DNA of 64,000 bases. It comes from a virus (Duplodnaviria; Caudoviricetes). Positions within the stretch are counted from its first letter, which is position 1, and each line of letters opens with the position of its first letter. The position numbers and the translations under genes were made by a program. Under the pieces are notes generated by a model. The model searched no databases and had not been told where the DNA came from. It saw only the letters and a program-made list of their open reading frames with translations. Positions 11,691 through 55,505 of this stretch are shown here, piece by piece. The DNA lies in IMG/VR virus record IMGVR_UViG_3300043104_000334, one strand, 5' to 3'.

Positions 11691-11703
11691 CAATTATATA
11701 TGT
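11691..11703 (-). promoter_or_regulatory. Conserved promoter-like motif ACATATATAATTG (copy 1)
   Basis: Identical 13-mer at 21456 and 38611; all intergenic and upstream of operon starts; contains TATAAT. Confidence 0.75.
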
Positions 11704-11712
11704 CACGCTGAA

Positions 11713-17501: not shown

Positions 17502-18971
17502 TCAATTGTTAGCTCCAAGACATCTCCAATGTGCCTCTGACTGTGATATCCCATAGGTCTCATACTCCTTTAATGCTTCGAAGCAGTCATCAATTTTGAG
17601 GTAGTAAACATCATCATACTCCTCTTCCAATGCTACAACGAAATTATACTTGGTTAATACAATACGGTAATCAGTTCTACCTTTGTATGTTCCAAAATAC
17701 TCACCAGGCAAGTCAAGTATCTCTTTCTTGAAGTGCAATAAACCGTTTGCTTCGAATGTAACAATCTGTCTGGGAACAGTAATATTCTTACCTTGCATAA
17801 CACTAAGTATGCGATCAAGTAAAGCAAGCGTAGTATCTTCATTTTCCTCGAGCAACTCATCATCAATCTCACCAAGCCTGTAGGCAAGCTTGATGCGCTC
17901 GGTTATGAAGAATGCTGATTTGTTATAATCAAATTCTTTATTATCCGACAATGTATTTATATACATGTTTGATTTCGAAGTGCTGAAAATATTCTCCGGC
18001 TTGAGTGCAACCATAAGTTCGATATCCACATCCTTAAACTCACTAAAGTACTCCTCATTAGTCGGAAGATATGTACAAATAATGCTGTTAATAAAGTCAT
18101 TATTGTATTCAACAGGGTCCTCGTCCCTATAATCTATTCCCAAGATACTTAAGGCATCCATGAACTTCACACATAGACCAAATTCAGCTTTGTGAGCATC
18201 AGGGTTAATAAATATCTTTGTTACATTAGGATAGATAATATATTTGTTATCGTCCTCATGCACGAAGTTTCTTTTATAATTACCGTTAGAATCGATAAGG
18301 AATGTTGGATACCATCTGAAATCCGTAACCGTAACATAATTACGTTTACGGTCCTTAGCTTTAATATCCATGTAAGCGAATATGAAAGAGAATAGATTGG
18401 CTTTATACTGTTTTGAGTAACTCCAGATAGACTTCATGATGTAAGGTAACTCTCTAACAGTTTCCTCGAATGCATCATTAGATATCATTTCATCCTGTCT
18501 AACCTGAAGAACCTTTTCTTCCTCAGTGTCTCCATCCCCATCATAGTTGCGTAAGGTACGAGTGTATGTTTCAACATTTGCGATTACTGGTGACTTGTTA
18601 TTCTTCTTATAACCGACACACATATTGATAACATACTCTTTTACTTTTGTACTCTCTACGCCATCTATAATTAAATCTTCAAGCGTAGAGTAATTGCCTA
18701 AGCTCTGTTCAACTTCCTGTAGCATTCCATACTGTTTCACTTCACGCACCATAGCAGGATTCAAGTCCTTATATGCATACAATGTGTACGCAAGAAACTC
18801 GGACTGTTTATACTTACTTTTAAGCGTGCCATTAAATTGCCTTTTGATTTCATCGGCTTCACCATTAAATGGACTAAAGCTGTCATACGTTGCAGGCCCT
18901 TCTCTTGTAATCAAATCCTCAAGCACAGTCTTGCTAGGATAGGCACTAAAGCATCTAGTTTGTCTTAACAC
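17502..18971 (-). CDS. Hypothetical protein
   Basis: 489-aa ORF, GTG start with AGGA/GGAGG upstream; no motif recognised. Confidence 0.75.
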   Translation of the reverse strand: MLRQTRCFSAYPSKTVLEDLITREGPATYDSFSPFNGEADEIKRQFNGTLKSKYKQSEFLAYTLYAYKDLNPAMVREVKQYGMLQEVEQSLGNYSTLEDLIIDGVESTKVKEYVINMCVGYKKNNKSPVIANVETYTRTLRNYDGDGDTEEEKVLQVRQDEMISNDAFEETVRELPYIMKSIWSYSKQYKANLFSFIFAYMDIKAKDRKRNYVTVTDFRWYPTFLIDSNGNYKRNFVHEDDNKYIIYPNVTKIFINPDAHKAEFGLCVKFMDALSILGIDYRDEDPVEYNNDFINSIICTYLPTNEEYFSEFKDVDIELMVALKPENIFSTSKSNMYINTLSDNKEFDYNKSAFFITERIKLAYRLGEIDDELLEENEDTTLALLDRILSVMQGKNITVPRQIVTFEANGLLHFKKEILDLPGEYFGTYKGRTDYRIVLTKYNFVVALEEEYDDVYYLKIDDCFEALKEYETYGISQSEAHWRCLGANN

Positions 18972-20615: not shown

Positions 20616-21115
20616 TATTCTTTTTCCTCCTTATACAATTTCATAGCTTCGACAATTTTCTTTATCATCTGTTCGTCATCCTCGTCTGTCTCAAATATGA
20701 CATGATATGATCTAGCATAAAACTCGATTGCCCATCTTGTTAGTGAGCCCCACTCTAACAGACCGGCAGAGTCCTTCATACCCTTTTTTGTGGACAGCTC
20801 ATCACAAACATCTCTGCAATCTTTGTAAAGTGTTTCTGCATAGGCACGAAGCTTTCTTCTTTCTGTGTACAGACCGAGCCTTACATCCATATAGAACTCA
20901 AGCCGAATTGCAGTTCCTTCAACGAGAGATTTCTTCATAGAGATTTCCCTTTCCTCGTCAGGATGTTCATTGTACAACTTTTCAAGTTCTTCACTCTCAT
21001 CTTTGAGAGTTTTAGCAAGGCTCTTTACATCTATGAATTCACACTCTTCGGTCTGTGCAAGCATTTTGTTGCATTCAGCTACAATTTGCTGAACCGAATT
21101 AACGACCTTACTCAT
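20615..21115 (-). CDS. Hypothetical helical protein
   Basis: 166 aa, coupled to neighbours. Confidence 0.7.
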   Translation of the reverse strand: MSKVVNSVQQIVAECNKMLAQTEECEFIDVKSLAKTLKDESEELEKLYNEHPDEEREISMKKSLVEGTAIRLEFYMDVRLGLYTERRKLRAYAETLYKDCRDVCDELSTKKGMKDSAGLLEWGSLTRWAIEFYARSYHVIFETDEDDEQMIKKIVEAMKLYKEEKE

Positions 21116-21438
21116 TGTTTATCTCCTTCATGATACTTATTTACTTTATTCATGTTTATCCTTTTCTCAAGCTCACTACAGGTTATATAGGTATCAGTAT
21201 AACCAACTACTCTTATACCCTTTGTCAAGTATTTACTCACCTGCAGTTTTCGTTCCATCGGAATTGATGTGTTCTTGAGAACACACATATTTATATAATA
21301 ACGTGTGTTGTGATAGATGGCATCTATATGCCTATATCTATCTGGCACCAATGTTTTAACATAGTTGCACAATTCTTCATAATTCTCTCGTAAAGCAATA
21401 ACTTTATCCAAATCGAACGAATCCGTTGCGATAATCAT
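21112..21438 (-). CDS. Hypothetical protein
   Basis: 108 aa, first gene after the promoter motif. Confidence 0.65.
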   Translation of the reverse strand: MIIATDSFDLDKVIALRENYEELCNYVKTLVPDRYRHIDAIYHNTRYYINMCVLKNTSIPMERKLQVSKYLTKGIRVVGYTDTYITCSELEKRINMNKVNKYHEGDKQ

Positions 21439-21455: not shown

Positions 21456-21468
21456 CAATTATATATGT
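21456..21468 (-). promoter_or_regulatory. Conserved promoter-like motif ACATATATAATTG (copy 2)
   Basis: Exact copy, 17 nt upstream of ATG 21438. Confidence 0.75.
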
Positions 21469-21487
21469 TATTAACATCTTCTTATAT

Positions 21488-21658
21488 TCAAAAGATTCTT
21501 AATAGGCCATACTGACACATATAATCTTCATCAATAGGAACGCCAATTGCTATGAGTGCATGCGTTAGTAAATCAAACAAAACAGCAATGCACACGATAG
21601 CAAACAGCATAGCAATGTACTCAAATACAAATGTAAGTACATCCTTAAATAATTTCAT
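21488..21658 (-). CDS. Small membrane protein (56 aa, not in ORF track)
   Basis: MKLFKDVLTFVFEYIAMLFAIVCIAVLFDLL...; start overlaps the Hsp70 stop (TGATG). Confidence 0.55.
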   Translation of the reverse strand: MKLFKDVLTFVFEYIAMLFAIVCIAVLFDLLTHALIAIGVPIDEDYMCQYGLLRIF

Positions 21659-25750: not shown

Positions 25751-26863
25751 TTAATTTTGTTTACGTATCATATCACGGTACGCTTCATATCTTCCACTCC
25801 ACTGTTGCTGCAATTGTGCAGTTTCAGTAGTGTCAAGAACAACATTTGCAGAACTCCTTAAGTTGAACGCAATAGGATATCCAACCTGCAAATTGTTCTC
25901 AACAATGTTTGCAATATTGTTTATTGATATCCTAGGGAACGTCTTACCCTCAACACTGATAGGATAACACTTAACTTTTAGGAATGTTCCATACATGCCC
26001 TGATTCTCTTCATAACCCTCTACAAAAGAATGCATGGCATGTTCTTCCCAAGCACCAAGCCGAATAGCATACTGATATTGGGAATTCTCAATAACTAGCC
26101 CATCTGTTAAATAACCATAGGCTCTGTTGATATAGGACATATACCAAATATATTTCTTAAGTTCCTCAAAGTTATTCACCCAAACAAACTTAGGTGACTT
26201 AAACCCGAGACTCTCAAGAACTTTATACTGGTCCTCAACTTCATCTCCATTCTCAACAAACATATTAAATGCTAAGAATGACAGATAGTCAACAGCAGAC
26301 CTAGCTAACGCCGACCTTACAGACGCACGCTGGTCATTATTACCGGTTATCATTTTGAATGCTTCCCACTTATCATTCGGAATAGACATCTCACCGGTTA
26401 TAGCTGTTCGTGCCTTGATAGGAATCTTCTGCGGAAATAGTTTATAAACGTTTTTAATGTCAAGATTAGTACCAGACCGCCCTCTAGTCTCAACATTTAC
26501 AATATTCCCATTGAAGTAGGACACTCTAGTGTTCCAGCCATCAATTTTGAAGGATAGTCGAGAACGCTCATTCAAACCTCTAAATACTTCATTGAACTCT
26601 TCTTCATTGTTAATGGAGTAAATAGACTCTGCCATGTAACCCATTGTAGGATTACAGATTAACCGTGACAGATTGTATTTCTTTAATAACTCTTCTGGAC
26701 ACTCATCAAATGACCAAGGCTGCTTCGAGTGAATATCATCTGGATACTCAAACTTGAAATGTCTCTCAAGCTTATCATACTCAATATCTGACAGTATTGG
26801 TTCTCCCATTAGATAGGTCCATCTCGCGATAATATATCGCTCATACGTATTGTCAATTACCAT
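25751..26863 (-). CDS. NAD-dependent DNA ligase, N-terminal half (Ia, adenylation and OB domains)
   Basis: Domain Ia YLMGEPILSDIEYDKL; motif I FKIDG; ETRGRSG; motif III TGE; motif IV TDGLVI; OB RISINNIANIVENNLQVG; stops before the Zn finger. Confidence 0.88.
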   Translation of the reverse strand: MVIDNTYERYIIARWTYLMGEPILSDIEYDKLERHFKFEYPDDIHSKQPWSFDECPEELLKKYNLSRLICNPTMGYMAESIYSINNEEEFNEVFRGLNERSRLSFKIDGWNTRVSYFNGNIVNVETRGRSGTNLDIKNVYKLFPQKIPIKARTAITGEMSIPNDKWEAFKMITGNNDQRASVRSALARSAVDYLSFLAFNMFVENGDEVEDQYKVLESLGFKSPKFVWVNNFEELKKYIWYMSYINRAYGYLTDGLVIENSQYQYAIRLGAWEEHAMHSFVEGYEENQGMYGTFLKVKCYPISVEGKTFPRISINNIANIVENNLQVGYPIAFNLRSSANVVLDTTETAQLQQQWSGRYEAYRDMIRKQN

Positions 26864-26865
26864 TC

Positions 26866-27363
26866 TTAGTTGCTCCTATCAATAACATTGATTGTAACTG
26901 ATTCTTTATTTGTGCTGTATAATGTTTCGTATTGCAAGTCTAGAGTAAGTACATTGTACACCTCAGAAACTGGCACACTAATAATGACATCACCCGGACT
27001 AAGTACTCCAGATGCAATAACCTCACTGCCATTTACAAGTGAATACTCAACATCACATATGTTATCATCATCACTTGTTAAGTTAATGTACAGTAAATCG
27101 TTGTAATATGTCGACATGCTGTTGTAATATACCTTAACAGTTTCATTATGTATATACATAATATTAAGAGTCACACATGCAATAATGATAAGCATACACA
27201 ATACTTCCCATTTACGCCCAGGCTTCCTACAGTAAACATTTGTTACATTTGTTTCTGCATTATACAGCATTTTCTTTACTAGGGTTTTATCTGGTTGGTC
27301 GAGATAATTTGTACCCTTGTAGACATAATTTGGTCTACCACGTATAACTTTAGTCTTTACCAT
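26866..27363 (-). CDS. Bitopic membrane protein
   Basis: 165 aa, one TM then a beta-rich domain. Confidence 0.7.
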   Translation of the reverse strand: MVKTKVIRGRPNYVYKGTNYLDQPDKTLVKKMLYNAETNVTNVYCRKPGRKWEVLCMLIIIACVTLNIMYIHNETVKVYYNSMSTYYNDLLYINLTSDDDNICDVEYSLVNGSEVIASGVLSPGDVIISVPVSEVYNVLTLDLQYETLYSTNKESVTINVIDRSN

Positions 27364-27380
27364 GCTTAATTCACCACATT

Positions 27381-27392
27381 CAGTTATATATG
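27381..27392 (-). promoter_or_regulatory. Variant promoter-like motif CATATATAACTG
   Basis: One mismatch within the 12-mer core; 17 nt upstream of ATG 27363, the same spacing as copy 2. Confidence 0.65.
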
Positions 27393-27417
27393 AAACATAA
27401 ACTAATTTACGTTCATT

Positions 27418-28413
27418 TTATTGAAAAAGCTCGTCTACTCCATAGGTAACACCATCAAGGTATAATGCTAGGTGTAAGTGCGGTCCCGTACATCTTGAAC
27501 CAGTACCACCTGACAATGCAATCGTTTGATACTGTTTAACTTCCTGTCCCTCTTTCACCTTAATCTCAGACAGATGACAAACAAGATATTTTACATTATC
27601 TCCACACTCAACCGTTACAAAATATCCAATAGTATCAGACCATCCACAGGATGATACTGTCCCGTTGAATAGTGCACCCACCTTTGTTCCAACTGCAGCT
27701 CTATAATCAGTACCTGCATGGAATCTAACTTCATTATGATTAAGAGGGTCAACTCTATAACCATATGTTGACGTTACATATTTATCATTTGGAAGAATCC
27801 ATTGAATATTCTTAACATCACCAAGATCATAAGCATCCATTGCTTCAACATATAAAGCTTTTGCATCTTCTAGCTGCTGTTCAACTGACGACAAATCACT
27901 CTCGATAGATTTATAAGAGTAATTCAATTTATAGTCATTAACAACAGAAAGCAGAGAATTCATATTTGATACATTGGATTTGTAAGAACCATCCAATTGC
28001 AATAAGGTATTAATATCAGCCGTAAGAACGTCGGAACTAATCTCACTTGCTATAGCATCATTCTTTGTTTTATAAACAGAGATACTGTCAAGTACATCGT
28101 TTAATTCTTCCTCTCTCTTAGCAATGTACTCTTCCATTATTGCATTATATTGTTCATTCATTGTCTGCTGAGCCTGCATTGATTGCAAGTCATTTTCAAT
28201 GGAATTGATTTCATCTTCAATATCTGATGTTACAGGACCACCTAATGTTAATCCATAGACATTAAGCAAGTCTTCTGTATTATCCGCATAAACCTGCATA
28301 GGTTGGGATGGTAGAATAGAAACTACCATCCCAATTACTATACTAGCCCTGTAAAGCTTCCTGCAGGCTGCGGAGCACATATGTGATTTCAGTATAGTCA
28401 CTACCGTCCTCAT
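27418..28413 (-). CDS. Secreted M23 metallopeptidase with coiled coil (peptidoglycan hydrolase)
   Basis: HAGTD (HxxxD) and GPHLH motifs; N-terminal signal; start MRTVV at 28413 with GAGGAGG RBS. Confidence 0.9.
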   Translation of the reverse strand: MRTVVTILKSHMCSAACRKLYRASIVIGMVVSILPSQPMQVYADNTEDLLNVYGLTLGGPVTSDIEDEINSIENDLQSMQAQQTMNEQYNAIMEEYIAKREEELNDVLDSISVYKTKNDAIASEISSDVLTADINTLLQLDGSYKSNVSNMNSLLSVVNDYKLNYSYKSIESDLSSVEQQLEDAKALYVEAMDAYDLGDVKNIQWILPNDKYVTSTYGYRVDPLNHNEVRFHAGTDYRAAVGTKVGALFNGTVSSCGWSDTIGYFVTVECGDNVKYLVCHLSEIKVKEGQEVKQYQTIALSGGTGSRCTGPHLHLALYLDGVTYGVDELFQ

Positions 28414-28669
28414 CTGTGTCCTCCTCACGTGTCATTGTATATCCGTCCACTTCCTCAGGCACCAACATAGCACCTTTTCGATTGTATCTCTGAAGCATAA
28501 GCATAGGCTCATTTGTATATACGTTGTAATATATCAATATGAGCGAATCGTCACCGGCCTCAAGTTCATCCCCAAAGATTTGAACGACATGTTTTTCCAT
28601 GTTAGATTTAAACACATAGTCACTGTTCATAATGTCGTCCCAATTCATTTTTAATAACTTATTCTGCAT
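28343..28669 (-). CDS. Hypothetical protein directly after beta'
   Basis: 108 aa, GGAGG RBS. Confidence 0.65.
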   Translation of the reverse strand: MQNKLLKMNWDDIMNSDYVFKSNMEKHVVQIFGDELEAGDDSLILIYYNVYTNEPMLMLQRYNRKGAMLVPEEVDGYTMTREEDTDEDGSDYTEITYVLRSLQEALQG

Positions 28670-28679
28670 TCGTAACCTC

Positions 28680-31600
28680 CTAAGATTCGACGTCGGAGCC
28701 TATGCCTATCCTTAATCCAAATGCGGCTCTTGTAATCGGATTTGACATTGAGTCATTAGGGTTCATCAAGATTGCCCTAGGCACATATGTATCCATATTT
28801 TCCATAAGGACACTCTCAAAGAAATCATTTTTATACTTTGGAAGAGCTTTCAAACCAAGTAACGTACGCATACTAAGCTGCTGCCCATTCACATCATTAC
28901 AAGCTTCAGGCCAAGTCAGGACAGAGCCAGCTTTATAATATGTCTTCTCACCAGTATGCAACGACTTGTAATCATAAACATTATTAGCATCAGCCCAAAG
29001 ATAGCATACAGACATTGAAGCTACGATTGTTTCAAAGTGCTTAAAGTTTACATCCTGCGTCATGAAAGTATCATATAGCTTTAATGCCAAATAGGATGCC
29101 GCTTTATCAAATCCCCTGTACCGTAACACTTCTTTCATGTTGAGATTACCCTGAATCTTCTGGAAAGAATCACCTTCGTATACATGGTCTTTTAATTTTG
29201 TCTGTGCATGAACGATAATCTTTTTGACAGCAAGTGAACGCATTCTTGATTTCACAATTCTGTCCTCAGGGTTATCAGGGATGATAAAGATTCTCTTGGT
29301 ACCATTACCAAGGTACTGCTCCCTTATTTTTCCATCCACCGGACTTATCATGTCGTACGTAAGAACTCCACGTTTACTCTTCCGTTTAGAAAAGTCATGA
29401 AGCTCAAAGTAATCTTCAATAAGCTGGAATGAAGATGTAAGGTTTGCATCAGTAACGACACCACCCTTTTGGAAGTTCTTCATTGTAAGCTGTGTACCCG
29501 GTTCACCAATAGCCTGTGCCGCAATAAAACCAACGGGTCTGCCGAGTTGTGGCTCATCTGTTCCAGCCGCAATATCCCTGCCATAGCACTTCTTGCAGAC
29601 AGGGCACTTGCAGTAAACTGGAGAACGCATCTCAACAATACCATCACCAGTCTCAACAAATTCATGTGTCTTAGGATTGATATATCCCCACGACTTATCA
29701 ATATGCTGGTAAGCCGCATTGATATTAGGGATGAATACAGACCTACTGTCTTGGCTGGTTCGATCAATACACCAACGACCAACGATAATCTTACTGAGAT
29801 ATTCTCTTGCAGCAAGCAACTGAGTTTTATACTCTGATGAATTCCTGAAAGCATCAACAACCTGCTTTGATGCGTTAGGCACACGAACGCCATACCTTGA
29901 AATCTGTGAATCATCAAGGAACGGTACAATGTCCTCAAGACTGAACTGCATACCCTCAGTTGTTTCACAATCTTCACTGAACACACTCATGATAGCGCCG
30001 GCATGTTCAAGCTTACGTGACATGTATCCCGGGTCAGCAGTAGCAAGTACCTTATCAGCAATACCCTTACGTGAACCATAAGCGGTAATGAATCCCTCGA
30101 GTCCTGTAAGATGACCTGAATAGCATCCGGCAATAATACTATTGAACGCTGTTGTATCATTCTTTTGTACACGACCCTTAAGACCAAATATCTGCATGAT
30201 ATTATTCTTGTCACCCTTACCACCGGACTTCATCATAGCGATATATCCATTATCATCTCCAAGGTTATTGACAAGATAATCTATAACTTCATCACGCAGT
30301 TCGTTCCACCGTTTATTGAAGTAGTTAGAGTATTCAGACTCAATCTCAATTCCAATGTTGACATACTCTTCACGCTCAAGCACATCTTTATTGAAATCAT
30401 CAATAAGTTGCTTTACGTGCTCCTTAACAGTGCTACTAACAATCGTTGAAATATTAGGCGGCCAAATCTTGGCAACTCTGAACCCAAGTTTTACAAGTCT
30501 GTTAATAGCATTTAAGAAGAAAGTCTTATTATTGCTATAAGCATTCTCCAAGATACTCGTAATCTGCTTCGCCTTGATTCCTTTACCCTTAAGGACCGTA
30601 GTAAGGTCCTGCGTATTGAAACCACAATAGATAGCATACTCCAATGCCGCTATTCCTGCTGTCTGCGTTCCAAACGGTGTCTCAACATTGTCATAGATAT
30701 TTATCTTCTGCTTACATACAGCATCATAGATATTTTTACCATGACCATTGTTCTGTGGAAGCCCCATCGATTTCGCGATATTATTCACATCAGCTTGTGA
30801 GAGATTCCTTGATTTTGTATTAGCCGTTGCTGTACTACACATCCATAGACCATAAATGATTTCATGCCGCATAACGATGGTGATTTCACCATTCTTTGGA
30901 TACCGGTAGTTGTTCGTAAAGGACATACGTTCACGTATCTCTTTATTTGCTTCAGCCGTCTGTGCCATATTAAAATGCATCTGGTCACCGTCGAAGTCAG
31001 CATTAAATGGCATAACGACAAGTGGGCTAAGCACAATCGCGTCACCATCAACCGGCTTAATCTTAAATGCTTCTATGCCTAGATAGAACAATGTAGGTTG
31101 TCTACCAGTAGGTCCAAACCTCGGTTCATATTCAAGCCATCTCTTAAGCAAGTCTTTATAAACCAAACCATCTACATCAGTTTTAGTAGAAGTAGATAAT
31201 CTTGCCAGATTCTTCTTTGTTACTTTCTTCGACAGGTCTGGGGCTTCATTACGGAGCCATTGTATAACACTTGGCTCTGCAATCTTATAGAGCATACTCC
31301 ATGGTATTCCTATTGTATCAATAGGCATCTCTGGGTCACAGGTAATTACTGTACGTCCCGAATAATCAATACGCACGCCCTGCATTCTACCACGCATGAG
31401 TCCCTCTTTACCAGTTATTGTATCTGAGATGGATTTATAATCCTTTAATCTTTGTTGCTGAATGACTTGGTCATCTCCAATAAAGATATTCCGGATATAC
31501 TGTACAACCTCTCTGTACTTATTTAACACAGCATAACAGGTTGCGTTTTGCTGCTGTTCAAGGATATCACGCAGTTCAGAGTTAGCATTTACGAGCTTGT

Positions 31601-32489
31601 TGTACTGCGATGTGATGACATCAACACGACCATCAATCGTAGGTCTATAACCCTCAGGCAGTACGAATATGTAACTAAGAATCTGACTTTTAAGTGCTTC
31701 CTTACCATCTCCATCAATCATAGAACTGAGCAAGCTAAGGATTGGAAATTGCTGCATGTTTGTTATATCATAGTTCTCAGTGTTGTCCAACATCTTAGCG
31801 TATACATCATCAATCCTATCTTCTGGCAAATCACCGCTTTCAAGGTCAATGAAATAGGTTCCAAATAACCAACCGTTTTCAATAGATACCCTACCAGAAA
31901 TAATATCTTCAGGGTCTACCGTAACGATAGGTCCAAGATTCAAAGTGCCTGCTTCATAGGCTGCTTTTTCGTCTTTCGATAAAACAGGTACAACATATGT
32001 GCCAATAAGCTTGTTACACAAGGAATCCCAAACATCTACCTCATCCAAAAGTTTCACAAGCAACTCCGCTCCAAATACATACCGCTCCCGGTCAAACATA
32101 GATGTACCAATATCTGCATTGGATACCATAGCTCCTACCTCATTATCATAAACAACATTTCCGTTTATGATTCCGGATATCATGTCTGAGCTTAATCCAA
32201 GTACAGTTCTCCATACCGGTGCTCCCCTACCTGCTAAGAAAGGATTAAGGACTCTGCATGTGAGGTCAATATACCCGACCCTTGTATATTTATCCTCGTA
32301 TATCTTATCATTGCAGTTAGGGTCATCAGAATGGTCTGCCTTTCCGAAGATTGAGGATGACACAACGTTGTGCTCATAATTATACGCTGTGTCAAGCCGC
32401 ACCATAGGAGCCGACGTAATTGACTGTCGTTCACTAGGGGCCATTCGCTTCTTATCATCTTTGTTTATTGGTCTAACAGAAATACTCAT
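28680..32489 (-). CDS. rpoC: DNA-directed RNA polymerase beta' subunit, divergent
   Basis: FNADFDGDQM catalytic loop; GKEGLMRGRMQGVRIDYSGRTVI; RQPTLF; bridge helix GSRKGIADKVLATADPGYMSRKL; C-terminal Zn site CKCPVCKKCYG; trigger loop IGEPGTQLTM. Confidence 0.95.
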   Translation of the reverse strand: MSISVRPINKDDKKRMAPSERQSITSAPMVRLDTAYNYEHNVVSSSIFGKADHSDDPNCNDKIYEDKYTRVGYIDLTCRVLNPFLAGRGAPVWRTVLGLSSDMISGIINGNVVYDNEVGAMVSNADIGTSMFDRERYVFGAELLVKLLDEVDVWDSLCNKLIGTYVVPVLSKDEKAAYEAGTLNLGPIVTVDPEDIISGRVSIENGWLFGTYFIDLESGDLPEDRIDDVYAKMLDNTENYDITNMQQFPILSLLSSMIDGDGKEALKSQILSYIFVLPEGYRPTIDGRVDVITSQYNKLVNANSELRDILEQQQNATCYAVLNKYREVVQYIRNIFIGDDQVIQQQRLKDYKSISDTITGKEGLMRGRMQGVRIDYSGRTVITCDPEMPIDTIGIPWSMLYKIAEPSVIQWLRNEAPDLSKKVTKKNLARLSTSTKTDVDGLVYKDLLKRWLEYEPRFGPTGRQPTLFYLGIEAFKIKPVDGDAIVLSPLVVMPFNADFDGDQMHFNMAQTAEANKEIRERMSFTNNYRYPKNGEITIVMRHEIIYGLWMCSTATANTKSRNLSQADVNNIAKSMGLPQNNGHGKNIYDAVCKQKINIYDNVETPFGTQTAGIAALEYAIYCGFNTQDLTTVLKGKGIKAKQITSILENAYSNNKTFFLNAINRLVKLGFRVAKIWPPNISTIVSSTVKEHVKQLIDDFNKDVLEREEYVNIGIEIESEYSNYFNKRWNELRDEVIDYLVNNLGDDNGYIAMMKSGGKGDKNNIMQIFGLKGRVQKNDTTAFNSIIAGCYSGHLTGLEGFITAYGSRKGIADKVLATADPGYMSRKLEHAGAIMSVFSEDCETTEGMQFSLEDIVPFLDDSQISRYGVRVPNASKQVVDAFRNSSEYKTQLLAAREYLSKIIVGRWCIDRTSQDSRSVFIPNINAAYQHIDKSWGYINPKTHEFVETGDGIVEMRSPVYCKCPVCKKCYGRDIAAGTDEPQLGRPVGFIAAQAIGEPGTQLTMKNFQKGGVVTDANLTSSFQLIEDYFELHDFSKRKSKRGVLTYDMISPVDGKIREQYLGNGTKRIFIIPDNPEDRIVKSRMRSLAVKKIIVHAQTKLKDHVYEGDSFQKIQGNLNMKEVLRYRGFDKAASYLALKLYDTFMTQDVNFKHFETIVASMSVCYLWADANNVYDYKSLHTGEKTYYKAGSVLTWPEACNDVNGQQLSMRTLLGLKALPKYKNDFFESVLMENMDTYVPRAILMNPNDSMSNPITRAAFGLRIGIGSDVES

Positions 32490-32492
32490 TGT

Positions 32493-33338
32493 TTATACCA
32501 ATCCCTTCCCGTAATCATGTAAAATCATTTCGAGTGCATGCTCATTTATCTCAGTCTTGTACACAAGTCTTAAGCCGTCAAGTCCTGAAACCGGAACTGC
32601 ACAAGTAAAGAACTTTGATAAATCATACACTGTTCTACATGGCATTATGTTGTCATACCCTTCATCAAACAATGCCTGCGTATCTGCATAATCCCAGTAC
32701 CCAGTACCTTTCTTGATGAACATGAATGTCGTGGCTACACCTGCACCCTCTCGTTTTAAATCGCAAATCTTAACGTGTGGCAACAACATCTCTGGATAAC
32801 TCGCTGGCTCAACATAAGAGTTCTGTGTATACCAAACAGTATCCGTTCCAAGATAGGGAACCCTATCAGAATCCGGTGGTCCCTCATAATCACACATAAG
32901 ACTACCGATTTCTTCTTTTGGCAACTTGAGAGCATTTGCGTGCCTTGTGCTAGCACGCATTGATGGCGAACGACCATGTCCCTCATCGAATTCCTTATTG
33001 TTCACAACCTCTTCATCAACACCGTAGAAGCAACCTTTTTCAGGGTTGATTCCACCATTCTCCACAGGAATGATATTACTCATAAGCATACCAAGTTCAA
33101 TGAGTGACATCCCATAGATATCATTCTGTCTGAACAATGAATGCTGATGCACATCGTCCCATCCATGATAGAACCCTATCACCCTCCAGTGTGGAATATT
33201 GTAGTCAAGCAAATCAGTTGAGAATCTGTTATAAACGATCATCAACTCATCTTTACTCAGCTGCTTGCTAAACTGTACAATACCATTTGATACCGTGCAG
33301 CCGGCAAAGCATTCCCCAACTAAAGATATTTCATTCAT
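32493..33338 (-). CDS. rpoA: Probable RNA polymerase alpha subunit (NTD only), highly divergent
   Basis: Colinear matches to alpha-NTD: NRFSTDLLDYNIPHWRVIGF ~ NSLRRILLSSLPG.AV; HSLF..DIYGMSLIEL ~ HEFSTIPGV.EDV.EI; LLPHVKICDL ~ ILNPDLHIATL; IKKGTGY ~ V.RGRGY; IMPCRTVY ~ IPIDSIY; DGLRLVYKTE ~ DKLTLEVWTD. Lies between beta and beta'; start MNEIS at 33338 (ATGA overlap). Confidence 0.7.
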   Translation of the reverse strand: MNEISLVGECFAGCTVSNGIVQFSKQLSKDELMIVYNRFSTDLLDYNIPHWRVIGFYHGWDDVHQHSLFRQNDIYGMSLIELGMLMSNIIPVENGGINPEKGCFYGVDEEVVNNKEFDEGHGRSPSMRASTRHANALKLPKEEIGSLMCDYEGPPDSDRVPYLGTDTVWYTQNSYVEPASYPEMLLPHVKICDLKREGAGVATTFMFIKKGTGYWDYADTQALFDEGYDNIMPCRTVYDLSKFFTCAVPVSGLDGLRLVYKTEINEHALEMILHDYGKGLV

Positions 33339-34018
33339 GAAATTCCTCCCGTAATAATGTACCCAATTGCAACCGCAGCAATAGCTACAGCCCAAGCAGC
33401 ATAGGTACAAGATTTATTCTTTGTACGAAGTGTCATAAATCTAATGTTTCTCTTCGTGATTGGAAATAAGACTGGACATCCCTCTACAGTAAGCATATCA
33501 GCAAACAGATGTGAGCAATACCCAACACACAACCCAAGCACACTATACTTCCATAAAGGGAAGTCTGATACACCAATTGCAAAGTAAAGCAATACTGGTA
33601 CTAATAATGTGTGCATTAAACCCCTGTGTCTTGTTGCCCACTGGAATGTTTTGCTATTATAAATAAACTTCTTTGCAACGGCAATTATAATAAATCCAAT
33701 AGCAATAAGCATAAGCTTATCTGCTTCAATACCATAGTTCTTGAATCCAAGCATTGTAACTATTGCAAGTATTCCTGCAATGAGTACACCGGCTAAGATA
33801 AGTAAATTCAATGTCTTTGTCGTAAGGTTTGTAATCACCTTACGCTTTCTACCAATCTTAGTCATATCGTGGTCAATATCAGGAAGCATACATCCAACTG
33901 CCGAAGCAGGCAGGATAAGCAACCCATAAGGGTCACCATATCCTTTTGACACGATACACGCACCTGCTATTCCAAATCCTATTCCAACTACTTTATGTTG
34001 TACACCTGTCATAGCCAT
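33335..34018 (-). CDS. YdjM-like membrane-bound metal-dependent hydrolase
   Basis: MTGVQH, LPDIDH, HRGLMHT, SHLFADMLT..G motifs; TM segments. Confidence 0.85.
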   Translation of the reverse strand: MAMTGVQHKVVGIGFGIAGACIVSKGYGDPYGLLILPASAVGCMLPDIDHDMTKIGRKRKVITNLTTKTLNLLILAGVLIAGILAIVTMLGFKNYGIEADKLMLIAIGFIIIAVAKKFIYNSKTFQWATRHRGLMHTLLVPVLLYFAIGVSDFPLWKYSVLGLCVGYCSHLFADMLTVEGCPVLFPITKRNIRFMTLRTKNKSCTYAAWAVAIAAVAIGYIITGGIS

Positions 34019-34079
34019 ACCTTTCTAGAACTACAACGTTCCACGTTATTTTGCATGAGACAGATAGTACCTCATACAA

Positions 34080-37000
34080 TTATTTCTGAAAACTTCCAAG
34101 GATTAGATTTGTTGCATTTTCAAACTCGTCATCTTCTTGACTTGCAACTGTGTCCTCGACAGCTTCAGAAGTATTACTCTTCACAGAGTTCTGCTTTTTG
34201 TTCGTATTCTTCTTGTACTGAACACTTGCCTGCTGAATAACACTAGGCTTCCAGTGCGCAAGCTGAGCACCATTATCCTTGTCAAGTGGAATGAACTCAC
34301 CATCATTAGGTTCACACATTACACCAAGTGCAAGGAAAGAATACAGAAACTGCGTAACTGCACGCCGCTGTCCGGGTGAGTCAATATGGTACTGCTTCCT
34401 GAGTTCGCCCGGGAAATATGTATCAATGTTGAAGTTATCTCTGGCAATGGCGTTATCACATCTTTCGTTTGTCAATTCATGTATATATGCAGATGCGCCA
34501 TAAGCACATAGCGCGTCAATCTCCATTGTACCAAATCTCTGTCCACCACCATTTGATGAACCGTGTGTAGGCGCATCTGTCATCTCACCATAAGGTTCCC
34601 AAATGTTCTGTCCGCCTCTTGCATGAATCTTCTTATGAGACTCCTGTATAAGCTTGAACACATGCAGATAAGCAACCACGATTTCTGTCTCAGTCATGTT
34701 TCCATCGTTATCCGGTAACATAACTTTTGTTGTGCCACGCTCATTGAAACATCCTGCATAAATACGAATGTCGTTGATAACCTCAACTAGATGTTGCTTG
34801 AAAGACTCAACGTGCTTTATGTGACTTTCATTAAGCAAATCACCATGTCTCAAGAATACAGCATTTAGGTCACCGGTAGAATTCATAAGGTCAACAGTAA
34901 GGGACATCAACATAGCAATCTCTTCCTCTGAAATACAGTTGTACGCATCTGATGAAAGTTTAAACTTGCACACATGAGAAAACAGCCCTGTATGAGATTC
35001 CTTTATCTGGCCAACATTCATACGTGAACCTACACCAAGTGGATTAAGACAAATATCCAATGGAAAACCATTTGCAAGACGTGGCATGTTAGATGTCTTT
35101 TCTTTCTTACTAAGAACACCTTTGTTACCATGTCGGTTAGACATCTTGTCACCACCACTAAACGGGTCGATAGAGACCGTATTCAGTGTCAAGCCATAAT
35201 TACCTGCTCTGTGTTCTGACTTGATAGAATCATATTTTTCATAGAATCCATAAGCCTTAGAAAGCGGAATATCTTTCTTCTTACTCTCCATGAATCGCCT
35301 ATCAGAGTAAGCAACACTAATTGAGCTACTAAGTTCCGGAGACATCCATCTACCGTTGTTTGATTTGCTCATACGGTAAGACCGAGTAGAGTTTGGGTTA
35401 CTTGTAAAGTCTTCCTTGTTGATTCTATAGGATGCAAGTCTGTTACACATTGATTCTGAAATATGCGCACCATCCTCATAATTGTAACCATCACAGATGT
35501 AACCAACAAGCGCATTACATCCAAGAGTTAAGATACCATTCTCAGAGATAAAATTTGAAGATACGAGCATCTGACCCTTATGGAATCTCTGCCCTACTTC
35601 AACGAGCACTTTCATCTTTGTTACAGAATAACCGCTATCAAAGTATTCATCAAACTGATAAATGGTACCATCAGAAATATCCTGTGAATCATACCGAACC
35701 GCAAGATGATACTTCTCTTCACGCCAGTTATATTCACATGTAACAACTGTACCGCTATCTTTTGCAATAATTCCAAACTTGTCGTTAAGCCATGCAAACT
35801 GCTCATAAGCACTCGTGATAACATCTGGTTCTTCTGCAAATACCAATCCCTTAGCCTGCTTCTCCTGTGCAACAGCAAAGATAGCACGCGCCGCATCATT
35901 ACTACTCATATACGGAATCGTGGATGACGCATAACTAAGCGACTGACTAGCATTGACATTGACGAAATCAACTTGACTGATAGGTCTGTATGCAAACGTA
36001 GATTTCTCGACAGAGTTTCTGGTGGGTACACGACACTGAACAATCTTAGTGTTATCCTTTACAACGTAATCACTGCCAAACTCAAGCGAGCAGATATCCG
36101 CAATTACATACCGCTCTTCATCCCGGCTAGTAAGAGGAATCTTCTTGTCAGTCTTAATAACTGACTGATTGCCAAGATGCTGTACTCTGTAATACAACGT
36201 AGACATCTTACCATCTGTAGAGATAACAGAGTCACAGCAGGAATTGTAAACTGTACCCATCTTCTGTGACTGCGGAATTTCATAAGCATCAATCTTCGCA
36301 TAAGAACCGATTGCAATTTCACGCTGAGAATCCGCAATGGAATGCTTGTTCGCCGTATAGACATTCACTTTTGTGCAAGCAGACTGATATGCAATAGGAT
36401 TATGGAGATTATCACCCTGCAACCGAACAATACATTTTGCTTCATCCCTAAGGTACTTCCAGAAGTTCTTTGTAAACGGATAGAATTCATTGTCGATTAA
36501 ATCGCGGTCAAGGAAATTCTGTCTCTTACCTTTATAGATTTCCTTGAACTTCCTATTCATTTGTTTGAATCCCTCACGGACTGCATAGCAGAATGCACGA
36601 TGGTACTGTTCCTCAATAGGAATTAAAACCTTTCTGAAACCTGCATCTGCATTTACAATTCGATCAATCCATTTGCCCTCAAACAACTTCACACAGAATG
36701 ATTGAAGTGCCATAAAGTCATACGTAGTGTAAGCACCATTAGCCGGTACAAAATCCTTGTCACAATTAAGGTAATACCAGTCACCATGTGGCTTACCAAT
36801 GTCTTTACCCCGGAACTGTCTGTTAGAGATAATCTCTTCGTAGAAGTTAAGAACTCTTACCTTTCCGCCGGACCTCTTGTCGCTCACCTTAATGGATTCC
36901 TTTCCATAAGCAACAATGACATCAAGCATATCGCTTGTAAGCTGTGTGCCTGATTCATAGATAATTGGTACCGGAAGTTTATCGTAGAACTTGGATGTAT

Positions 37001-38117
37001 ACATTCCATGCTCTTCCGGGAAATACTTTCGCAGCGACTTGGAAATTCTAAGACCTACAGGCGCAAACGGAATAAAGATATCTTCCGCCAGATAGAAACC
37101 CTCGATGTTTGGCACATACTTGATATAGAGTTTATAGACTCCATCGGCATTAAACAACCGAATCATATTACTGTCAACTACTTCACCAGCATGCGCAAGG
37201 ATTCTACCGTTTACAAGTTCCGACTCAACATCTCTTGCAAGTACCTCTCCAACAGCACGGTCAAGTGACAACAACTCATTCAAATCATCCCGAATAGCCG
37301 TATTGTCATAAGAGTCATCACCCTCACCATTCTCTTTGATACGCGTAAGAGTAAGCCTGGGAACGAGTTGTTTCTTGTAGTCGATACCATTTACGCTAGC
37401 AGAGTTAGCAACAATTCCACCAAGTCTCTGCTCTTTCTCTTCTTCATCCTTAAACATGTTAACAATGAAGAAGTTAGCAAACTCTTTAAAGAGTTCTTCT
37501 GGCTCATAGCCCTCATCCTTTGCCATTGCCACGATAAGGTCAAGCAACGTGTACTTAGTCTTAGACGACTTTCCACTCCGGTCAGACATCCGAATTTTTA
37601 ATGCGCTTGCATTATCATCAATCCAGATAGACCGAGTACCATTCTTAATCTTAAGACAAGCCGCCTTTGCAGTATTGTCATTTGCTTCGAACGATACCGT
37701 AGGCTCCTGCTCAAGCATATGTATGAATGCATACTGCTGGTTATCATACTCGATAATACCGTTCTCATAGACATGAGGAAGATTCATAACAGTGACGTCC
37801 TGAGCCTTATCAGGATTGAATCCCGGAATGTCAAACCTTACTGTAACATGATGTGTAAGGTCATTGTACTTTCCCGGGTCTACCTGTTTCACCTTGATTC
37901 TTTCAGCACTCGTTTTGAGCATATCAGGATTGCACTTAATAGCATTGATGAGAGCCGGCATGAACACGTTGAGTACATCCTCAACGGCCCGCTTATCCGT
38001 ATACTTCTTAAATGACTCGTAGACGGGACTTGGCTTCATGTCCGGTATAAGACTAGGTCTTGCAAGTTCATTCTGGTACGCGTATAATATATTTTTATTC
38101 TTGTCATAATCCAGCAT
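34080..38117 (-). CDS. rpoB: DNA-directed RNA polymerase beta subunit, divergent
   Basis: GYNYEDG, GDKMSNRHGNKGV, LNPLGVGSRMNVGQIKE, KIHAR, GGQRFGTMEIDAL..YGA. Confidence 0.95.
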   Translation of the reverse strand: MLDYDKNKNILYAYQNELARPSLIPDMKPSPVYESFKKYTDKRAVEDVLNVFMPALINAIKCNPDMLKTSAERIKVKQVDPGKYNDLTHHVTVRFDIPGFNPDKAQDVTVMNLPHVYENGIIEYDNQQYAFIHMLEQEPTVSFEANDNTAKAACLKIKNGTRSIWIDDNASALKIRMSDRSGKSSKTKYTLLDLIVAMAKDEGYEPEELFKEFANFFIVNMFKDEEEKEQRLGGIVANSASVNGIDYKKQLVPRLTLTRIKENGEGDDSYDNTAIRDDLNELLSLDRAVGEVLARDVESELVNGRILAHAGEVVDSNMIRLFNADGVYKLYIKYVPNIEGFYLAEDIFIPFAPVGLRISKSLRKYFPEEHGMYTSKFYDKLPVPIIYESGTQLTSDMLDVIVAYGKESIKVSDKRSGGKVRVLNFYEEIISNRQFRGKDIGKPHGDWYYLNCDKDFVPANGAYTTYDFMALQSFCVKLFEGKWIDRIVNADAGFRKVLIPIEEQYHRAFCYAVREGFKQMNRKFKEIYKGKRQNFLDRDLIDNEFYPFTKNFWKYLRDEAKCIVRLQGDNLHNPIAYQSACTKVNVYTANKHSIADSQREIAIGSYAKIDAYEIPQSQKMGTVYNSCCDSVISTDGKMSTLYYRVQHLGNQSVIKTDKKIPLTSRDEERYVIADICSLEFGSDYVVKDNTKIVQCRVPTRNSVEKSTFAYRPISQVDFVNVNASQSLSYASSTIPYMSSNDAARAIFAVAQEKQAKGLVFAEEPDVITSAYEQFAWLNDKFGIIAKDSGTVVTCEYNWREEKYHLAVRYDSQDISDGTIYQFDEYFDSGYSVTKMKVLVEVGQRFHKGQMLVSSNFISENGILTLGCNALVGYICDGYNYEDGAHISESMCNRLASYRINKEDFTSNPNSTRSYRMSKSNNGRWMSPELSSSISVAYSDRRFMESKKKDIPLSKAYGFYEKYDSIKSEHRAGNYGLTLNTVSIDPFSGGDKMSNRHGNKGVLSKKEKTSNMPRLANGFPLDICLNPLGVGSRMNVGQIKESHTGLFSHVCKFKLSSDAYNCISEEEIAMLMSLTVDLMNSTGDLNAVFLRHGDLLNESHIKHVESFKQHLVEVINDIRIYAGCFNERGTTKVMLPDNDGNMTETEIVVAYLHVFKLIQESHKKIHARGGQNIWEPYGEMTDAPTHGSSNGGGQRFGTMEIDALCAYGASAYIHELTNERCDNAIARDNFNIDTYFPGELRKQYHIDSPGQRRAVTQFLYSFLALGVMCEPNDGEFIPLDKDNGAQLAHWKPSVIQQASVQYKKNTNKKQNSVKSNTSEAVEDTVASQEDDEFENATNLILGSFQK

Positions 38118-38129
38118 AACACTGCTCCT

Positions 38130-38552
38130 TTATACTAAGTTGAATTTGCGAAGTAAGTCTTCGTCAAGCTCCTCCATTTCATCAGCATCATACTCACCCA
38201 TGTTTGTCACTTCTGCAGGCAGTGAAACCGGAACGTTATCACCCTCACAAAGAGGTATAGCAGTGATATCACCAAGGTCATCAACAACCAAGATGATTTT
38301 CTGACCTGCACACACTACCGGCAAAGCAACCTCCCAGTCATCTCCACACTCTGAGATAATGGTCGAGAAATCTTTCTCCGTATTCATGAAGTTACTGAAA
38401 TCTTCAATACCAGAAATCTCAATAACCTTGAGTCCGCCGTAAGCCGTAAAGGCAACCTGTACAAAGTCACCACTAGCCTTTGCGAAGATGCTTTCATCGT
38501 CCTCACCCATGTTCGCAAACCCTACTACCTGTGTCCATTCATTTCTTAGCAT
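38130..38552 (-). CDS. Acidic hypothetical protein, first gene of the RNAP operon
   Basis: 140 aa, AGGAGG RBS. Confidence 0.7.
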   Translation of the reverse strand: MLRNEWTQVVGFANMGEDDESIFAKASGDFVQVAFTAYGGLKVIEISGIEDFSNFMNTEKDFSTIISECGDDWEVALPVVCAGQKIILVVDDLGDITAIPLCEGDNVPVSLPAEVTNMGEYDADEMEELDEDLLRKFNLV

Positions 38553-38610
38553 AATAATAATGCCCTCCTTATTATTGTTTCTGGAAAGAATAGTTCTATA
38601 ACTCTTCTTT

Positions 38611-38623
38611 CAATTATATATGT
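38611..38623 (-). promoter_or_regulatory. Conserved promoter-like motif ACATATATAATTG (copy 3, RNAP operon)
   Basis: Exact copy, 58 nt upstream of ATG 38552. Confidence 0.75.
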
Positions 38624-38663
38624 GCTCAGTCAAGTTTCTTCTTCAGAAAATTAACTGAGCACA
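38621..38663. repeat. Inverted repeat abutting the RNAP-operon promoter
   Basis: TGTGCTCAGT (38621-30) / ACTGAGCACA (38654-63) with further imperfect inner pairing. Confidence 0.7.
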
Positions 38664-38666
38664 CTA

Positions 38667-38699
38667 TATTTTACAGGAGGAAAACCCTCCTGTAAAATA
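38667..38699 (-). terminator. 14-bp perfect hairpin after the giant adhesin gene
   Basis: TATTTTACAGGAGG-N5-CCTCCTGTAAAATA. Confidence 0.7.
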
Positions 38700-38708
38700 G
38701 TTGCTTAA

Positions 38709-41700
38709 TTAGTGTGTACCAGTTGTTGTCAAATCAGTCGTACTCGTATTGTATGCGTCATATACAACAAGAGGTGCCCATTTTGAGTCAATTTTGGTTA
38801 CTACTGTTCCGGTGGAAGAATATACATCAACTCCATTCTCACCTACTGTAATTGTATTGTTGTTACAATTATCTGGCTTATTGTCATTGCTGTAAAGCGT
38901 AATCTTATTATCTTTTCCACCATTCATCAGTCTCGCATCATATTCCAATTCATAGACACTACCCTGAACTGTAATACCAGCAAATGCAACAATAACCGAA
39001 TTCGGATGATCATTCTTAAGTTTTTGATTAGCTGTTAAGACTTCAGTCTTGGAAGTTGCTGCCCCTGCATATGTAGCAATTGTTGAGCTAGGTAAATTCA
39101 ATGTGAAATACCAACGCTGAGATTGCTTCATGAAATTAAGAGCTGTTACACCATTTCCTGTAGACCCACTCATTGCAGTACCGCCGAGCTGATTTGTACC
39201 AGTCCCTTCGGATGCATCTCCATAAAGATAAGATGAACCAATGTAGTCCAAATCATTACAATCAAGAACGATCTTTGATGCAGTACCGATATAATCATAT
39301 TTCTTATATGCAGCTTTATTTATGCCCCAATAAGATAATACAGTATCAGTATAACTCTCTTCAGTCGATGTTGTATTACGACGAGCCGCTTCAGTAGTAA
39401 GGTCAATAGAAAGACCTGTCTCAGTAAGCTTCTTCACATTAGCAGCACTGGTGTCACTATAATATAAAGTGTATGAACCAGAGCTACCAGCATAGAGGTC
39501 AATCGCATAAAACTTACCCTCACTGTAATCATATAGATAATAATGAGGAGTAATTGTCATAACGGCCGTTCTCGTATCTTCACCACTATTCTCATCCGCA
39601 ACTGATGACGGACCATCATCTCCACCAAATGAACCACCCTCAAGTGTATTGATACCATAATAATTACCAATAGTCTCAATATCAAAATAGGATGCATATC
39701 CAATCTTCAACTGTTCTGTTGAATAGGTAGAGTTACTCTGCAGAGAAGCTGCTGTCAATGGTAATGTACCCCACTCGCCTGCCTTACCTAATCCAGTTAT
39801 ACTACCATACCGATAATTGGTTACAGACAATGTAGCGTGTGATTGTGTCTGGGCCGTATGTCCTCTACTTGATAACATAATATCTGCAGTCGTAGTAAGA
39901 ATCTTTACTGGGTAACTCGAATCGACATTATGAACAACATTAGGAATAGACCATGAAGTTAGTGCTTTCTTAAATAATTCTGAATATCTAAAATCACCAA
40001 CATCTTCAAGAGCAAGATTTCCAATACGCCCAACAACCTCAATTGTAGTTGAACAATAAGTTGTATTATCTGCTACAAGGTTATAATCTCTTGTAATGTT
40101 TCTATTCTGATATTGATCAAAGTCGATATTCGAGCCAGCATTAATAGCTATCGTAGCAAATGTTACTGTTGCCGTAGTTGTTTCTTCAGCTGATGTAACA
40201 ACTTGGAATGAGTAATCAAGACCGTACTTAAATTCCGAATCACTTGACAGTGCATTTTGTAGAGCATCTGTCGCTCCATGGAATACACCTGAAGCTGCGT
40301 TAGTTAAACTACCATCTGAAGCTTTAGAAACAGAACCAGTATTGTTCTCAAGTGTATTACATCTATACTCAGAAAGATTTATCCAAGTATTTGCAGGTAT
40401 GGTGACAGTATCACCATTGACCTTTGTACCAATAACCGGGAATGTAAACATAACATCACGTTCTGCAACCCATCTGCCAGTATTCATATTGTTAGTATAA
40501 CCCTTAGCATTTGAGTTGATTTTTCCGGTATTAGAGTCAGCACCATTATAAGTGCATCCAACACCTAGAGATGCTGTAGCTACGCCGGCAATAGAGTCAC
40601 CATACGCATCATAGAAGTCACCGAAATCAGTTATCCATAAATGGACTGTATTTCCTATGACAACGTAGTTATTTTTGTTTGCTTCAGCAACGCCCTGCGT
40701 ACTTACTCGCATATCCTCGCCAGTCTCATCCTCAGCAGGACCGTTTCCATCATAGTCTCCGTATCCATTTCCAATTAACTGAGAATACTGAGAAGATACT
40801 GGGTCATGAATAAGAACATCGTTAAGAACACCATTATCAGAATCTGGTGAAAGCTTTGCTACATACTCAGTTTTTCTATCAGCCGTAATCTTTGGAGCAC
40901 TTACCTGTTCACTATCAACACACTGCTGACACAATGATTGATTACTGAAATCAAGTGCAAGATTATAATAAACATTCACACCGATAGGTGAAGTGTAAAC
41001 ACCATTTTTCGCAGTCTGAATCATTGAAATGTTACTAATTACTAATGCAGTACAATAATTAATTGTTGAACCATCACTAGTGTTTGTGTAACCTGAAACA
41101 TTTCCTGCTCCATTGTTGCTGACATTGGATCCACTACTTATGAGACTACCATTCAAGTATCTATTTACAGTAAAGCTTCCAATATTCGGATATGCAAATG
41201 TTGTATAATAACCATTGAATGTTTGTGTCTGTGCCGTTCCCTCACTCTTCGACACAAAATTTGTTCGTCCCGGTACTGTACTTGTTATTGGTACTGTTCT
41301 ACTATAACACGTTGCTACTATTATGTTGCTATTCTGTGACCATTTTTCACCATTTGTTACATATCCAGATAAGGTAGCCTTTGATAAAGAATCAATAAAT
41401 GATTCTCCTCTAATGATACCGTCAGATGAATATTTTACAGATGGATTAGAAGATACATGTCCAGTATAACCAACGTATAATGTTTTTGCATCGTTAAGAT
41501 TACCAACGTCATCATACTTATCCCAAAATACATTAGTGTTTAGTGTATTCTGCAATTCTTCTGCAGTACCGTATTTATTTGCATGATTGCGGTAATAAGT
41601 CTGTCCGTTCTCAGTAAATCCAAAATTAAACAGATTTATACCACTGTCGATAGCATAAGACTCAGCAAGAATATTCTGAGAACCAACGTTCGCAACACTA

Positions 41701-55493: not shown

Positions 55494-55505
55494 CACTGAT
55501 ATATG
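55494..55505 (-). promoter_or_regulatory. Variant promoter-like motif CATATATCAGTG
   Basis: Two mismatches to the core; 57 nt upstream of ATG 55436. Confidence 0.45.

Follow-up and report, generated by a model that had tools for sequence, protein, structure and literature searches.

A bacterial-type RNA polymerase with a replaced sigma-docking face: a putative private transcription system on a giant element

How would a bacterial-type RNA polymerase (RNAP) find its promoters if the surface on which such enzymes dock their sigma factor had been rewritten? The question is raised by a DNA stretch of 64,000 nucleotides (the whole of which is called the window in what follows), taken from the IMG/VR virus record IMGVR_UViG_3300043104_000334 and part of a 193,287-bp metagenome contig of the Joint Genome Institute (JGI). 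The giant mobile element to which the window belongs comes from the gut and is uncultured. The window carries, on its minus strand, an unsplit gene for the beta' subunit of RNAP (28680-32489, 1269 amino acids). A preliminary description, made from the sequence, had noticed substitutions at the sigma70-binding residues of the clamp helices of this protein, and had proposed that the core enzyme is insulated from the host sigma-A and needs an initiation factor of its own. We consider, with a probability of roughly 0.55, that the core forms no canonical holoenzyme with the host primary sigma, that it initiates at element-specific promoters (of the TGAA-N19-CATATATAATTG type), and that a specificity factor encoded by the element docks on the rewritten clamp-helix face, which would make the whole a private transcription system.

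The clamp helices and the other sigma anchor points

The beta' gene is assigned from its open reading frame (ORF) and translation, from Pfam and from its relatives in the PDB. Rpb1 domains 1, 2, 4 and 5 are matched in colinear order (RNA_pol_Rpb1_2 with an E-value of 4e-22), and the nearest solved relatives are bacterial chains (E about 1e-71; 5e-71 with phmmer against the PDB) which share about 25% identity over the aligned parts. The identity to cellular beta' is about 26%. The NADFDGD motif (residues 496-502) is intact, and it is invariant across the alignment of a family that comprises about 100 metagenomic protein clusters, with 26-77% identity to the element beta', on contigs of up to 270 kb. 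An AlphaFold2 (AF2) model of residues 1-560 (mf238211c81de, computed from a 62-row alignment, mean predicted local distance difference test (pLDDT) score of 82) matched bacterial, cyanobacterial and plastid beta' in a Foldseek search, with E about 1e-22.

The peptides singled out in the preliminary description are indeed encoded at 31482-31661 on the minus strand, within the beta' ORF. The clamp helices themselves (31482-31619, minus strand) are delimited by the model and by the alignments: a coiled coil of two helices, 291-312 and 318-336, is predicted with a pLDDT of about 85-95, and the five-residue tip that joins them (313-317) is about two residues longer in the model than in cellular beta'. 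As far as the predicted structure goes, the coiled-coil scaffold is kept.

The correspondence with E. coli residues, whose numbering was verified on MG1655 rpoC, was established using three aligners: pairwise HMMER against solved beta' chains, MAFFT over 122 sequences, and profile-profile hhalign (99.8% probability). In helix 1, all three give the same result, with Y269 aligned to Y296 and with R275, R278 and R281 replaced by A302, E305 and D308. In helix 2, HMMER and hhalign place Y319 at I291, K324 at E295, E327 at M298 and Y331 at A302, and MAFFT uses a register that is one residue off (V321, Y325 at E295, V328, and I332 at A302). The substitutions R275 to Ala, E295 to Lys and A302 to Tyr that had been read by eye are therefore recovered by HMMER and hhalign, and the three residues are replaced in the MAFFT register too. 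The stripe V321/Y325/V328/I332/I335 is hydrophobic in 101 of 101 family members and follows a 4-3-4-3 spacing, and is therefore expected to form the buried seam of the coiled coil; since I291, E295 and M298 are listed as sigma-contacting, the E. coli seam is presumably V292/K296/L299/V303/L306. We favor the HMMER/hhalign register over that of MAFFT.

How much of the sigma-docking face is affected? The 2.5-Å structure of the sigma32 open complex (RPo) lists R275, R278, R281, L282, L285, I291, E295 and M298 on the beta' side of the interface (PMC10216364), and the substitutions R275Q, E295K and A302D are reported to impair the formation of the holoenzyme (PMC8321222), so that the literature claim on which the preliminary description relied is confirmed. 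In the element beta', L282 (to I309) is the only one of these eight residues to have changed conservatively, the other seven having undergone non-conservative changes; counting A302, the sigma-contacting residues R275, R278, R281, L285, I291, E295, M298 and A302 are all replaced. The arginines R275, R278 and R281 lie opposite acidic residues of sigma region 2.2. The charge is reversed at R278, R281 and E295, and K324, at the position of E295, is the very E295K change that was reported to weaken sigma binding. The alteration of the clamp face is thus wider than first described.

The charge inversion is not a peculiarity of one sequence. The former three-arginine patch is acidic in 78 of 101 family members (net charge of -2 in 57, of -1 in 21), and two or more basic residues are found there in only three of the 101. 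Among the 47 closer relatives (45-77% overall identity to the query), E305, D308 and K324 are 91-94% conserved, and a lysine occupies the E295 position in 94%. Cellular beta' sequences are about 100% conserved at the clamp helices, which, in 19 diverse cellular beta' (median pairwise identity 60%), rank among the most conserved 4% of windows of the protein, whereas within the element family their conservation is average (60th percentile). Between E. coli residues 263 and 309, only 4 of 25 cellular-invariant positions are kept, versus 140 of 303 (46%) over the whole protein (Fisher p=0.005). These four are Y269, N276, L279 and Q300; the buried core is among them, and the heptad positions of the coiled-coil core are conserved in the family. 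In our reading, the coiled coil is thus kept as a scaffold, and the exposed face on which cellular enzymes dock sigma region 2.2 has been replaced, with Ala, Glu and Asp instead of R275, R278 and R281, Lys instead of E295, Glu instead of M298, and Tyr instead of both I291 and A302.

The lid next to the clamp helices (LPEGYRPTIDGRVD, 31620-31661, minus strand) is shortened, as had been noted: it has five residues fewer than that of E. coli, with alignment gaps at 252-253 and 258-260, and the equivalents of these residues are absent from all 47 closer relatives and from nearly all other members of the family.

Two other points to which sigma is anchored are altered as well. Family comparison and translation show that a short, cysteine-poor segment (32280-32351, minus strand) stands in the place of the N-terminal zinc-binding domain of beta'; in 102 of 102 family sequences, it has at most 25 residues and zero or one cysteine, compared to 33 residues and four cysteines in cellular beta'. 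The second zinc site is kept, C841, C960, C965 and C968 being invariant. In beta, the flap is reduced (35154-35462, minus strand) to about 100 amino acids between GYNYED and GDKMSNRHGNKG; if the SI2 insertion is left aside, the E. coli flap is about 40 residues longer than that of the element beta and those of two relatives. At the sequence level, no counterpart of the E. coli flap-tip helix 897-906 (E898, K900, L901, I905, F906) was found in the beta of the element or of these two relatives. With the clamp face replaced, the zinc domain lost and no flap tip seen, the three main anchors of sigma70-family factors (clamp-helix face, N-terminal zinc domain and flap-tip helix) would therefore be gone.

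A promoter-like motif and the search for its reader

If the core does not use the host sigma, promoters of another type may be expected on the element. The motif TGAA-N19-CATATAT occurs in five exact copies in the window (0.13 expected), all on the coding strand and all intergenic, 23-64 nt ahead of start codons, one before each of five operons, including that of the polymerase. All copies are on the minus strand. The first (38616-38645) lies 64 nt ahead of the gene that opens the polymerase operon; the others precede the ORFs 26866-27363 (copy at 27386-27415), 21112-21438 (21461-21490), 11289-11663 (11696-11725) and 54075-55436 (55499-55528). The first three copies are found at homologous places in L163, a relative with 69% beta' identity, and two more copies are present in the flanking DNA outside the window. 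In its longer form, the downstream box reads CATATAT(A/C)A(T/C/G)TG. Matches to a sigma70-type consensus are at chance level between 27300 and 39000, with 36 found versus 35.9 expected.

An 8-bp-stem hairpin (ACAGGAGG-GTTTT-CCTCCTGT, 38668-38696, minus strand) is located between the gene of a giant protein of 2455 amino acids and the first copy of the motif. The flanks of the hairpin read TTTACA-17-TAAAAT, which is the best sigma70-like match in the region. This arrangement may be a terminator, or a host-type promoter that bootstraps the polymerase operon, or it may have arisen by chance.

Which protein could read the motif? The statement that there is no recognizable sigma in the window holds: Pfam found no sigma domain in 49 window ORFs (E<=0.1), and PHROGs gave no informative match for 20 window ORFs. 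The search was widened using precomputed Pfam results for positions 14,832-160,515 of a near-identical contig of 161,903 bp, a range of about 146 kb that covers about 75% of the element. The sole sigma-related match over this range is a protein of 185 amino acids (L170:16068-16625, on the near-identical contig, about 39 kb beyond the window start) which has a helix-turn-helix (HTH) of the sigma region-4 type and no region 2. Residues 44-89 match Sigma70_r4_2 (PF08281) with a score that exceeds the gathering threshold (E 5e-6), and another HTH, which is weak, spans residues 149-182. It is present on 14 contigs of the element, and its relatives are few and fast-evolving. With two DNA-binding modules, it might in principle recognize a promoter made of two boxes.

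A second candidate, which is a weak one and whose ORF the preliminary description had named, is a conserved protein of 489 amino acids from an unnamed family (17502-18971, minus strand). This family has 233 representatives at 50% clustering, nearly all of 440-540 amino acids; conservation extends over residues 1-330, and the C-terminal domain varies more. None of its members has a Pfam or PHROG match, including 32 distant members that were compared to PHROGs. The AF2 model (pLDDT 76) consists of a unique N-terminal domain, a helical domain (163-279), a low-confidence segment and an alpha/beta C-terminal domain. When the helical domain is compared to 48,161 chains, domain 2 of sigma-A ranks first, second and fourth, with Z of only 3.9-4.6, tied with unrelated helical proteins, and the aligned sigma range (94-204) corresponds to regions 1.2 to 2.1 instead of 2.2 to 2.4. 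The resemblance of the modeled domain to sigma domain 2 is a weak lead. Foldseek of the whole model against the PDB gave nothing at E<=0.001, the family profile compared to PDB sequences gave only non-significant rows of troponin C, and the ESM Atlas held nothing usable for this ORF. A prediction of the complex between beta' 268-360 and residues 155-345 of this protein reached a median score of 0.29, for a mark of 0.32, which speaks neither for nor against binding.

Weighing the readings against each other and against known systems

The preliminary proposal that the core is insulated from the host sigma-A, and needs its own factor, gains from the replacement of the docking residues, from the missing zinc domain and flap-tip motif, from the lack of a sigma in the window and from the existence of a motif proper to the element. 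It has to be qualified in two respects: substitution alone does not prove independence from sigma, as the case of Hodgkinia shows (see below), and the protein with the region-4-type HTH, which is encoded outside the window, tempers the statement that there is no sigma. Insulation from the host sigma is plausible but unproven. From the evidence taken together, we infer that the binding of host sigma has been lost, that a partner exists, which may be one of the two candidates, and that the motif is read by the element polymerase.

A number of observations weigh against this reading. The register of helix 2 is uncertain by one residue, and the loss of the flap tip is deduced from sequence comparison only. 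The equivalents of the sigma face are conserved no better than average in the closer relatives (48th percentile) and poorly so across the family (64th percentile), which fits a partner that would co-evolve in each lineage, and would also fit relaxed constraint. No initiation partner was found, in a sigma search that spans about 75% of the element and which a factor similar to gp226 of phage AR9 would escape, as it would any sequence search. The downstream box of the motif holds TATAAT in four of the five copies, so that recognition by a host sigma-A holoenzyme is possible. The polymerase operon lies behind a copy of the motif, which raises a bootstrapping problem if the element enzyme is the only one that reads it. 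Last, Hodgkinia has changes at the same positions of beta' and still uses a cognate sigma that co-varies with them (PMC8321222).

The moderate conservation of the face and the lack of an identified partner are what one would expect if the clamp helices had no initiation partner at all and had simply drifted under relaxed constraint. Transcription would then start in a factor-free manner, either because the core recognizes promoters by itself or because it uses nicks, primers or single-stranded DNA, and such starts might fall during the transfer or the replication of the element, which does carry transfer-like and replication genes. This is unlikely, in our opinion. On the contrary, E305, D308 and K324 are strongly conserved among the closer relatives, the acidic patch recurs across the family, and a conserved bipartite promoter-like motif implies that initiation is sequence-specific. 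Multisubunit polymerases are not known to initiate at specific promoters unless a factor assists them.

It may also be that the core still uses a sigma70-family factor of the host, either through contacts that remain (for instance between the beta protrusion and sigma region 3, or between the cleft and the sigma finger) or by fitting the clamp differently, the substitutions being due to drift in a fast-evolving lineage. TATAAT in the downstream box, the lack of a full sigma of the element in the window and over the 146 kb, and the great divergence of beta' as a whole speak for it. It is nevertheless improbable in view of the nature of the changes: seven of the eight interface residues are altered non-conservatively, with three charge reversals, one of which is the loss-of-binding change E295K; the clamp helices have diverged significantly more than the rest of beta' (p=0.005); and the zinc domain and the flap-tip motif are missing too. 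Besides, 23 nt separate TATAAT from the TGAA box that precedes it, a spacing unlike that of a -35 element.

The clamp helices of cellular enzymes are a docking site common to sigma and to NusG-family factors, and the element has an elongation accessory (a Gre-like factor, described below), so that the rewritten face could serve an elongation or processivity partner analogous to NusG, RfaH or Spt5, promoter choice being made elsewhere, but this is very doubtful, since neither the ORFs of the window nor the precomputed Pfam results over the 146 kb showed an NGN or KOW domain, and since it would not account for the zinc domain and the flap tip having been lost together.

The preferred reading, that of a core which depends on an element-encoded factor docked on the rewritten clamp face, is best judged against known systems. 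The element enzyme resembles cellular RNAP in that its beta' is unsplit, has the same domain order, an intact DFDGD and the second zinc site, and has a two-helix coiled coil at the same place (E. coli residues 260-309), with core equivalents of Y269, N276 and L279. It differs from it by a patch that is acidic instead of basic, by a tip with two more residues, by a lid with five fewer, by the absence of the N-terminal zinc domain, and by clamp helices that evolve at an average rate instead of being among the most conserved parts of the protein.

The closest known parallels are the non-virion RNA polymerases (nvRNAP) of jumbo phages and the eroded polymerases of endosymbionts. The sigma-like subunit gp226 of AR9, which shares 9.6% identity with sigmaE, provides a precedent for a sigma that is invisible at the sequence level (PMC9209446). 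Like the enzymes that use AR9 gp226 or phiKZ gp68, the element polymerase is of the bacterial type, is encoded by a large non-cellular replicon, has its own type of promoter and lacks a sigma that could be recognized by its sequence. The 489-residue candidate is comparable to gp226 in size and modeled domain order; Foldseek, PHROG and Pfam gave no match for it. The differences are that beta and beta' are unsplit in the element, whereas each is split into two polypeptides in phiKZ and AR9, and that no matches to PHROGs or to virion genes were found, the context of the element being non-viral.

In Hodgkinia and other extreme endosymbionts, beta' residues 275, 295 and 302 are substituted and the flap-tip helix of beta is lost (PMC8321222). 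The element is also substituted at these three positions, and no flap-tip motif is seen in the sequence of its beta. However, the endosymbionts have retained a cognate sigma, in which region 2.2 co-varies, and their changes are interpreted as an erosion that accompanies genome reduction, whereas the element enzyme coexists with an intact host polymerase, has no full sigma that we could find, and shows a consistent inversion of charge.

A more far-reaching version of the preferred reading would be that of an orthogonal system carried by a non-viral giant mobile element, in which all sigma70 anchors have been removed or inverted in charge and the factor belongs to a new family (the 489- or the 185-residue candidate), so that it would constitute a new class of holoenzyme outside the phiKZ/AR9 lineage. 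We regard this as a tentative possibility. The contact between the clamp helices and sigma region 2.2 is among the most conserved protein interfaces of bacteria, and it is a drug target. A natural and widespread family that keeps the scaffold with an inverted face charge would be a ready-made orthogonal polymerase, and it offers a way to learn which factors a bacterial core can accept in the place of sigma. If true, the proposal would explain how a giant element expresses about 200 genes independently of host regulation, and the case can be tested directly by pull-down experiments and in vitro transcription.

The polymerase operon, its distribution and its neighbors

All credible genes of the window are on the minus strand. 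The beta gene (34080-38117, 1345 amino acids), identified by its Pfam Rpb2 domains 6 and 7 and by phmmer comparison with E. coli RpoB, is, like the beta' gene, a single ORF of bacterial type that has diverged strongly, and the gene calls of the relatives are likewise single genes. The order of the genes around the polymerase (giant protein, small acidic protein or proteins, beta, YdjM-like protein, 283-residue protein, beta', small acidic protein, M23 peptidase, ligase) is conserved, and it persists even in a relative whose beta' is 39% identical.

The two small acidic proteins that accompany the large subunits are candidates for extra polymerase subunits, with roles similar to those of omega or delta. 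One has 140 amino acids and is encoded by the first gene of the polymerase operon (38130-38552, minus strand), which ends 12 nt before the beta start codon; it has syntenic orthologues in L163 and in another relative, L164, where it is duplicated, and no family match in Pfam or PHROG. The other, of 108 amino acids (28343-28669, minus strand), starts 10 nt past the beta' stop codon, has syntenic orthologues at 54% and 33% identity, and has no match in the same two family libraries or in the ESM Atlas. The transcript-cleavage factor mentioned above is a Gre-like protein of 258 amino acids encoded further away (L171:15065-15841); its GreA_GreB C-terminal domain scores higher than the gathering threshold (E 3e-7), and the N-terminal coiled coil is matched weakly.

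No close relative of the beta' was found in phage and plasmid collections, where the top matches are host-type rpoC at about 25% identity, and three different scans of IMG/VR, including one with a single sequence and one with a DNA pattern specific to the family, retrieved no member of the latter. Scans of viral and genome collections with patterns of universal motifs returned mainly rpoC genes of cells and giant viruses. Assemblies from gut and rumen often contain the family, though it was not retrieved from IMG/VR; apparently, virus-detection pipelines do not call these elements viral.

Short contigs that cover the polymerase operon (window positions 26500-39500) are present in four animal-gut metatranscriptome libraries from different studies. 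Two of them match at 99-100% identity and two represent a variant at 95-99%; such contigs cannot show where transcripts start, and carry-over of DNA is possible. Where the variant differs, it does so mostly by transitions, and the sites concerned lie a multiple of three apart, as predicted for purifying selection. A decaying pseudogene was considered and rejected because of this spacing; in addition, the beta' ORF is intact and its catalytic motifs are invariant across 100 relatives.

Last, the flanking DNA contains genes related to ADP-ribose and AMPylation (NADAR, NADAR-DarT1-like, PARG-like and Fic) together with GGDEF and PilZ proteins. Genes of this conflict or signaling type are located at L165:1330-2674, L165:9647-9979, L169:10862-11431 and L170:15249-16028, which suggests that the element carries conflict or signaling modules.

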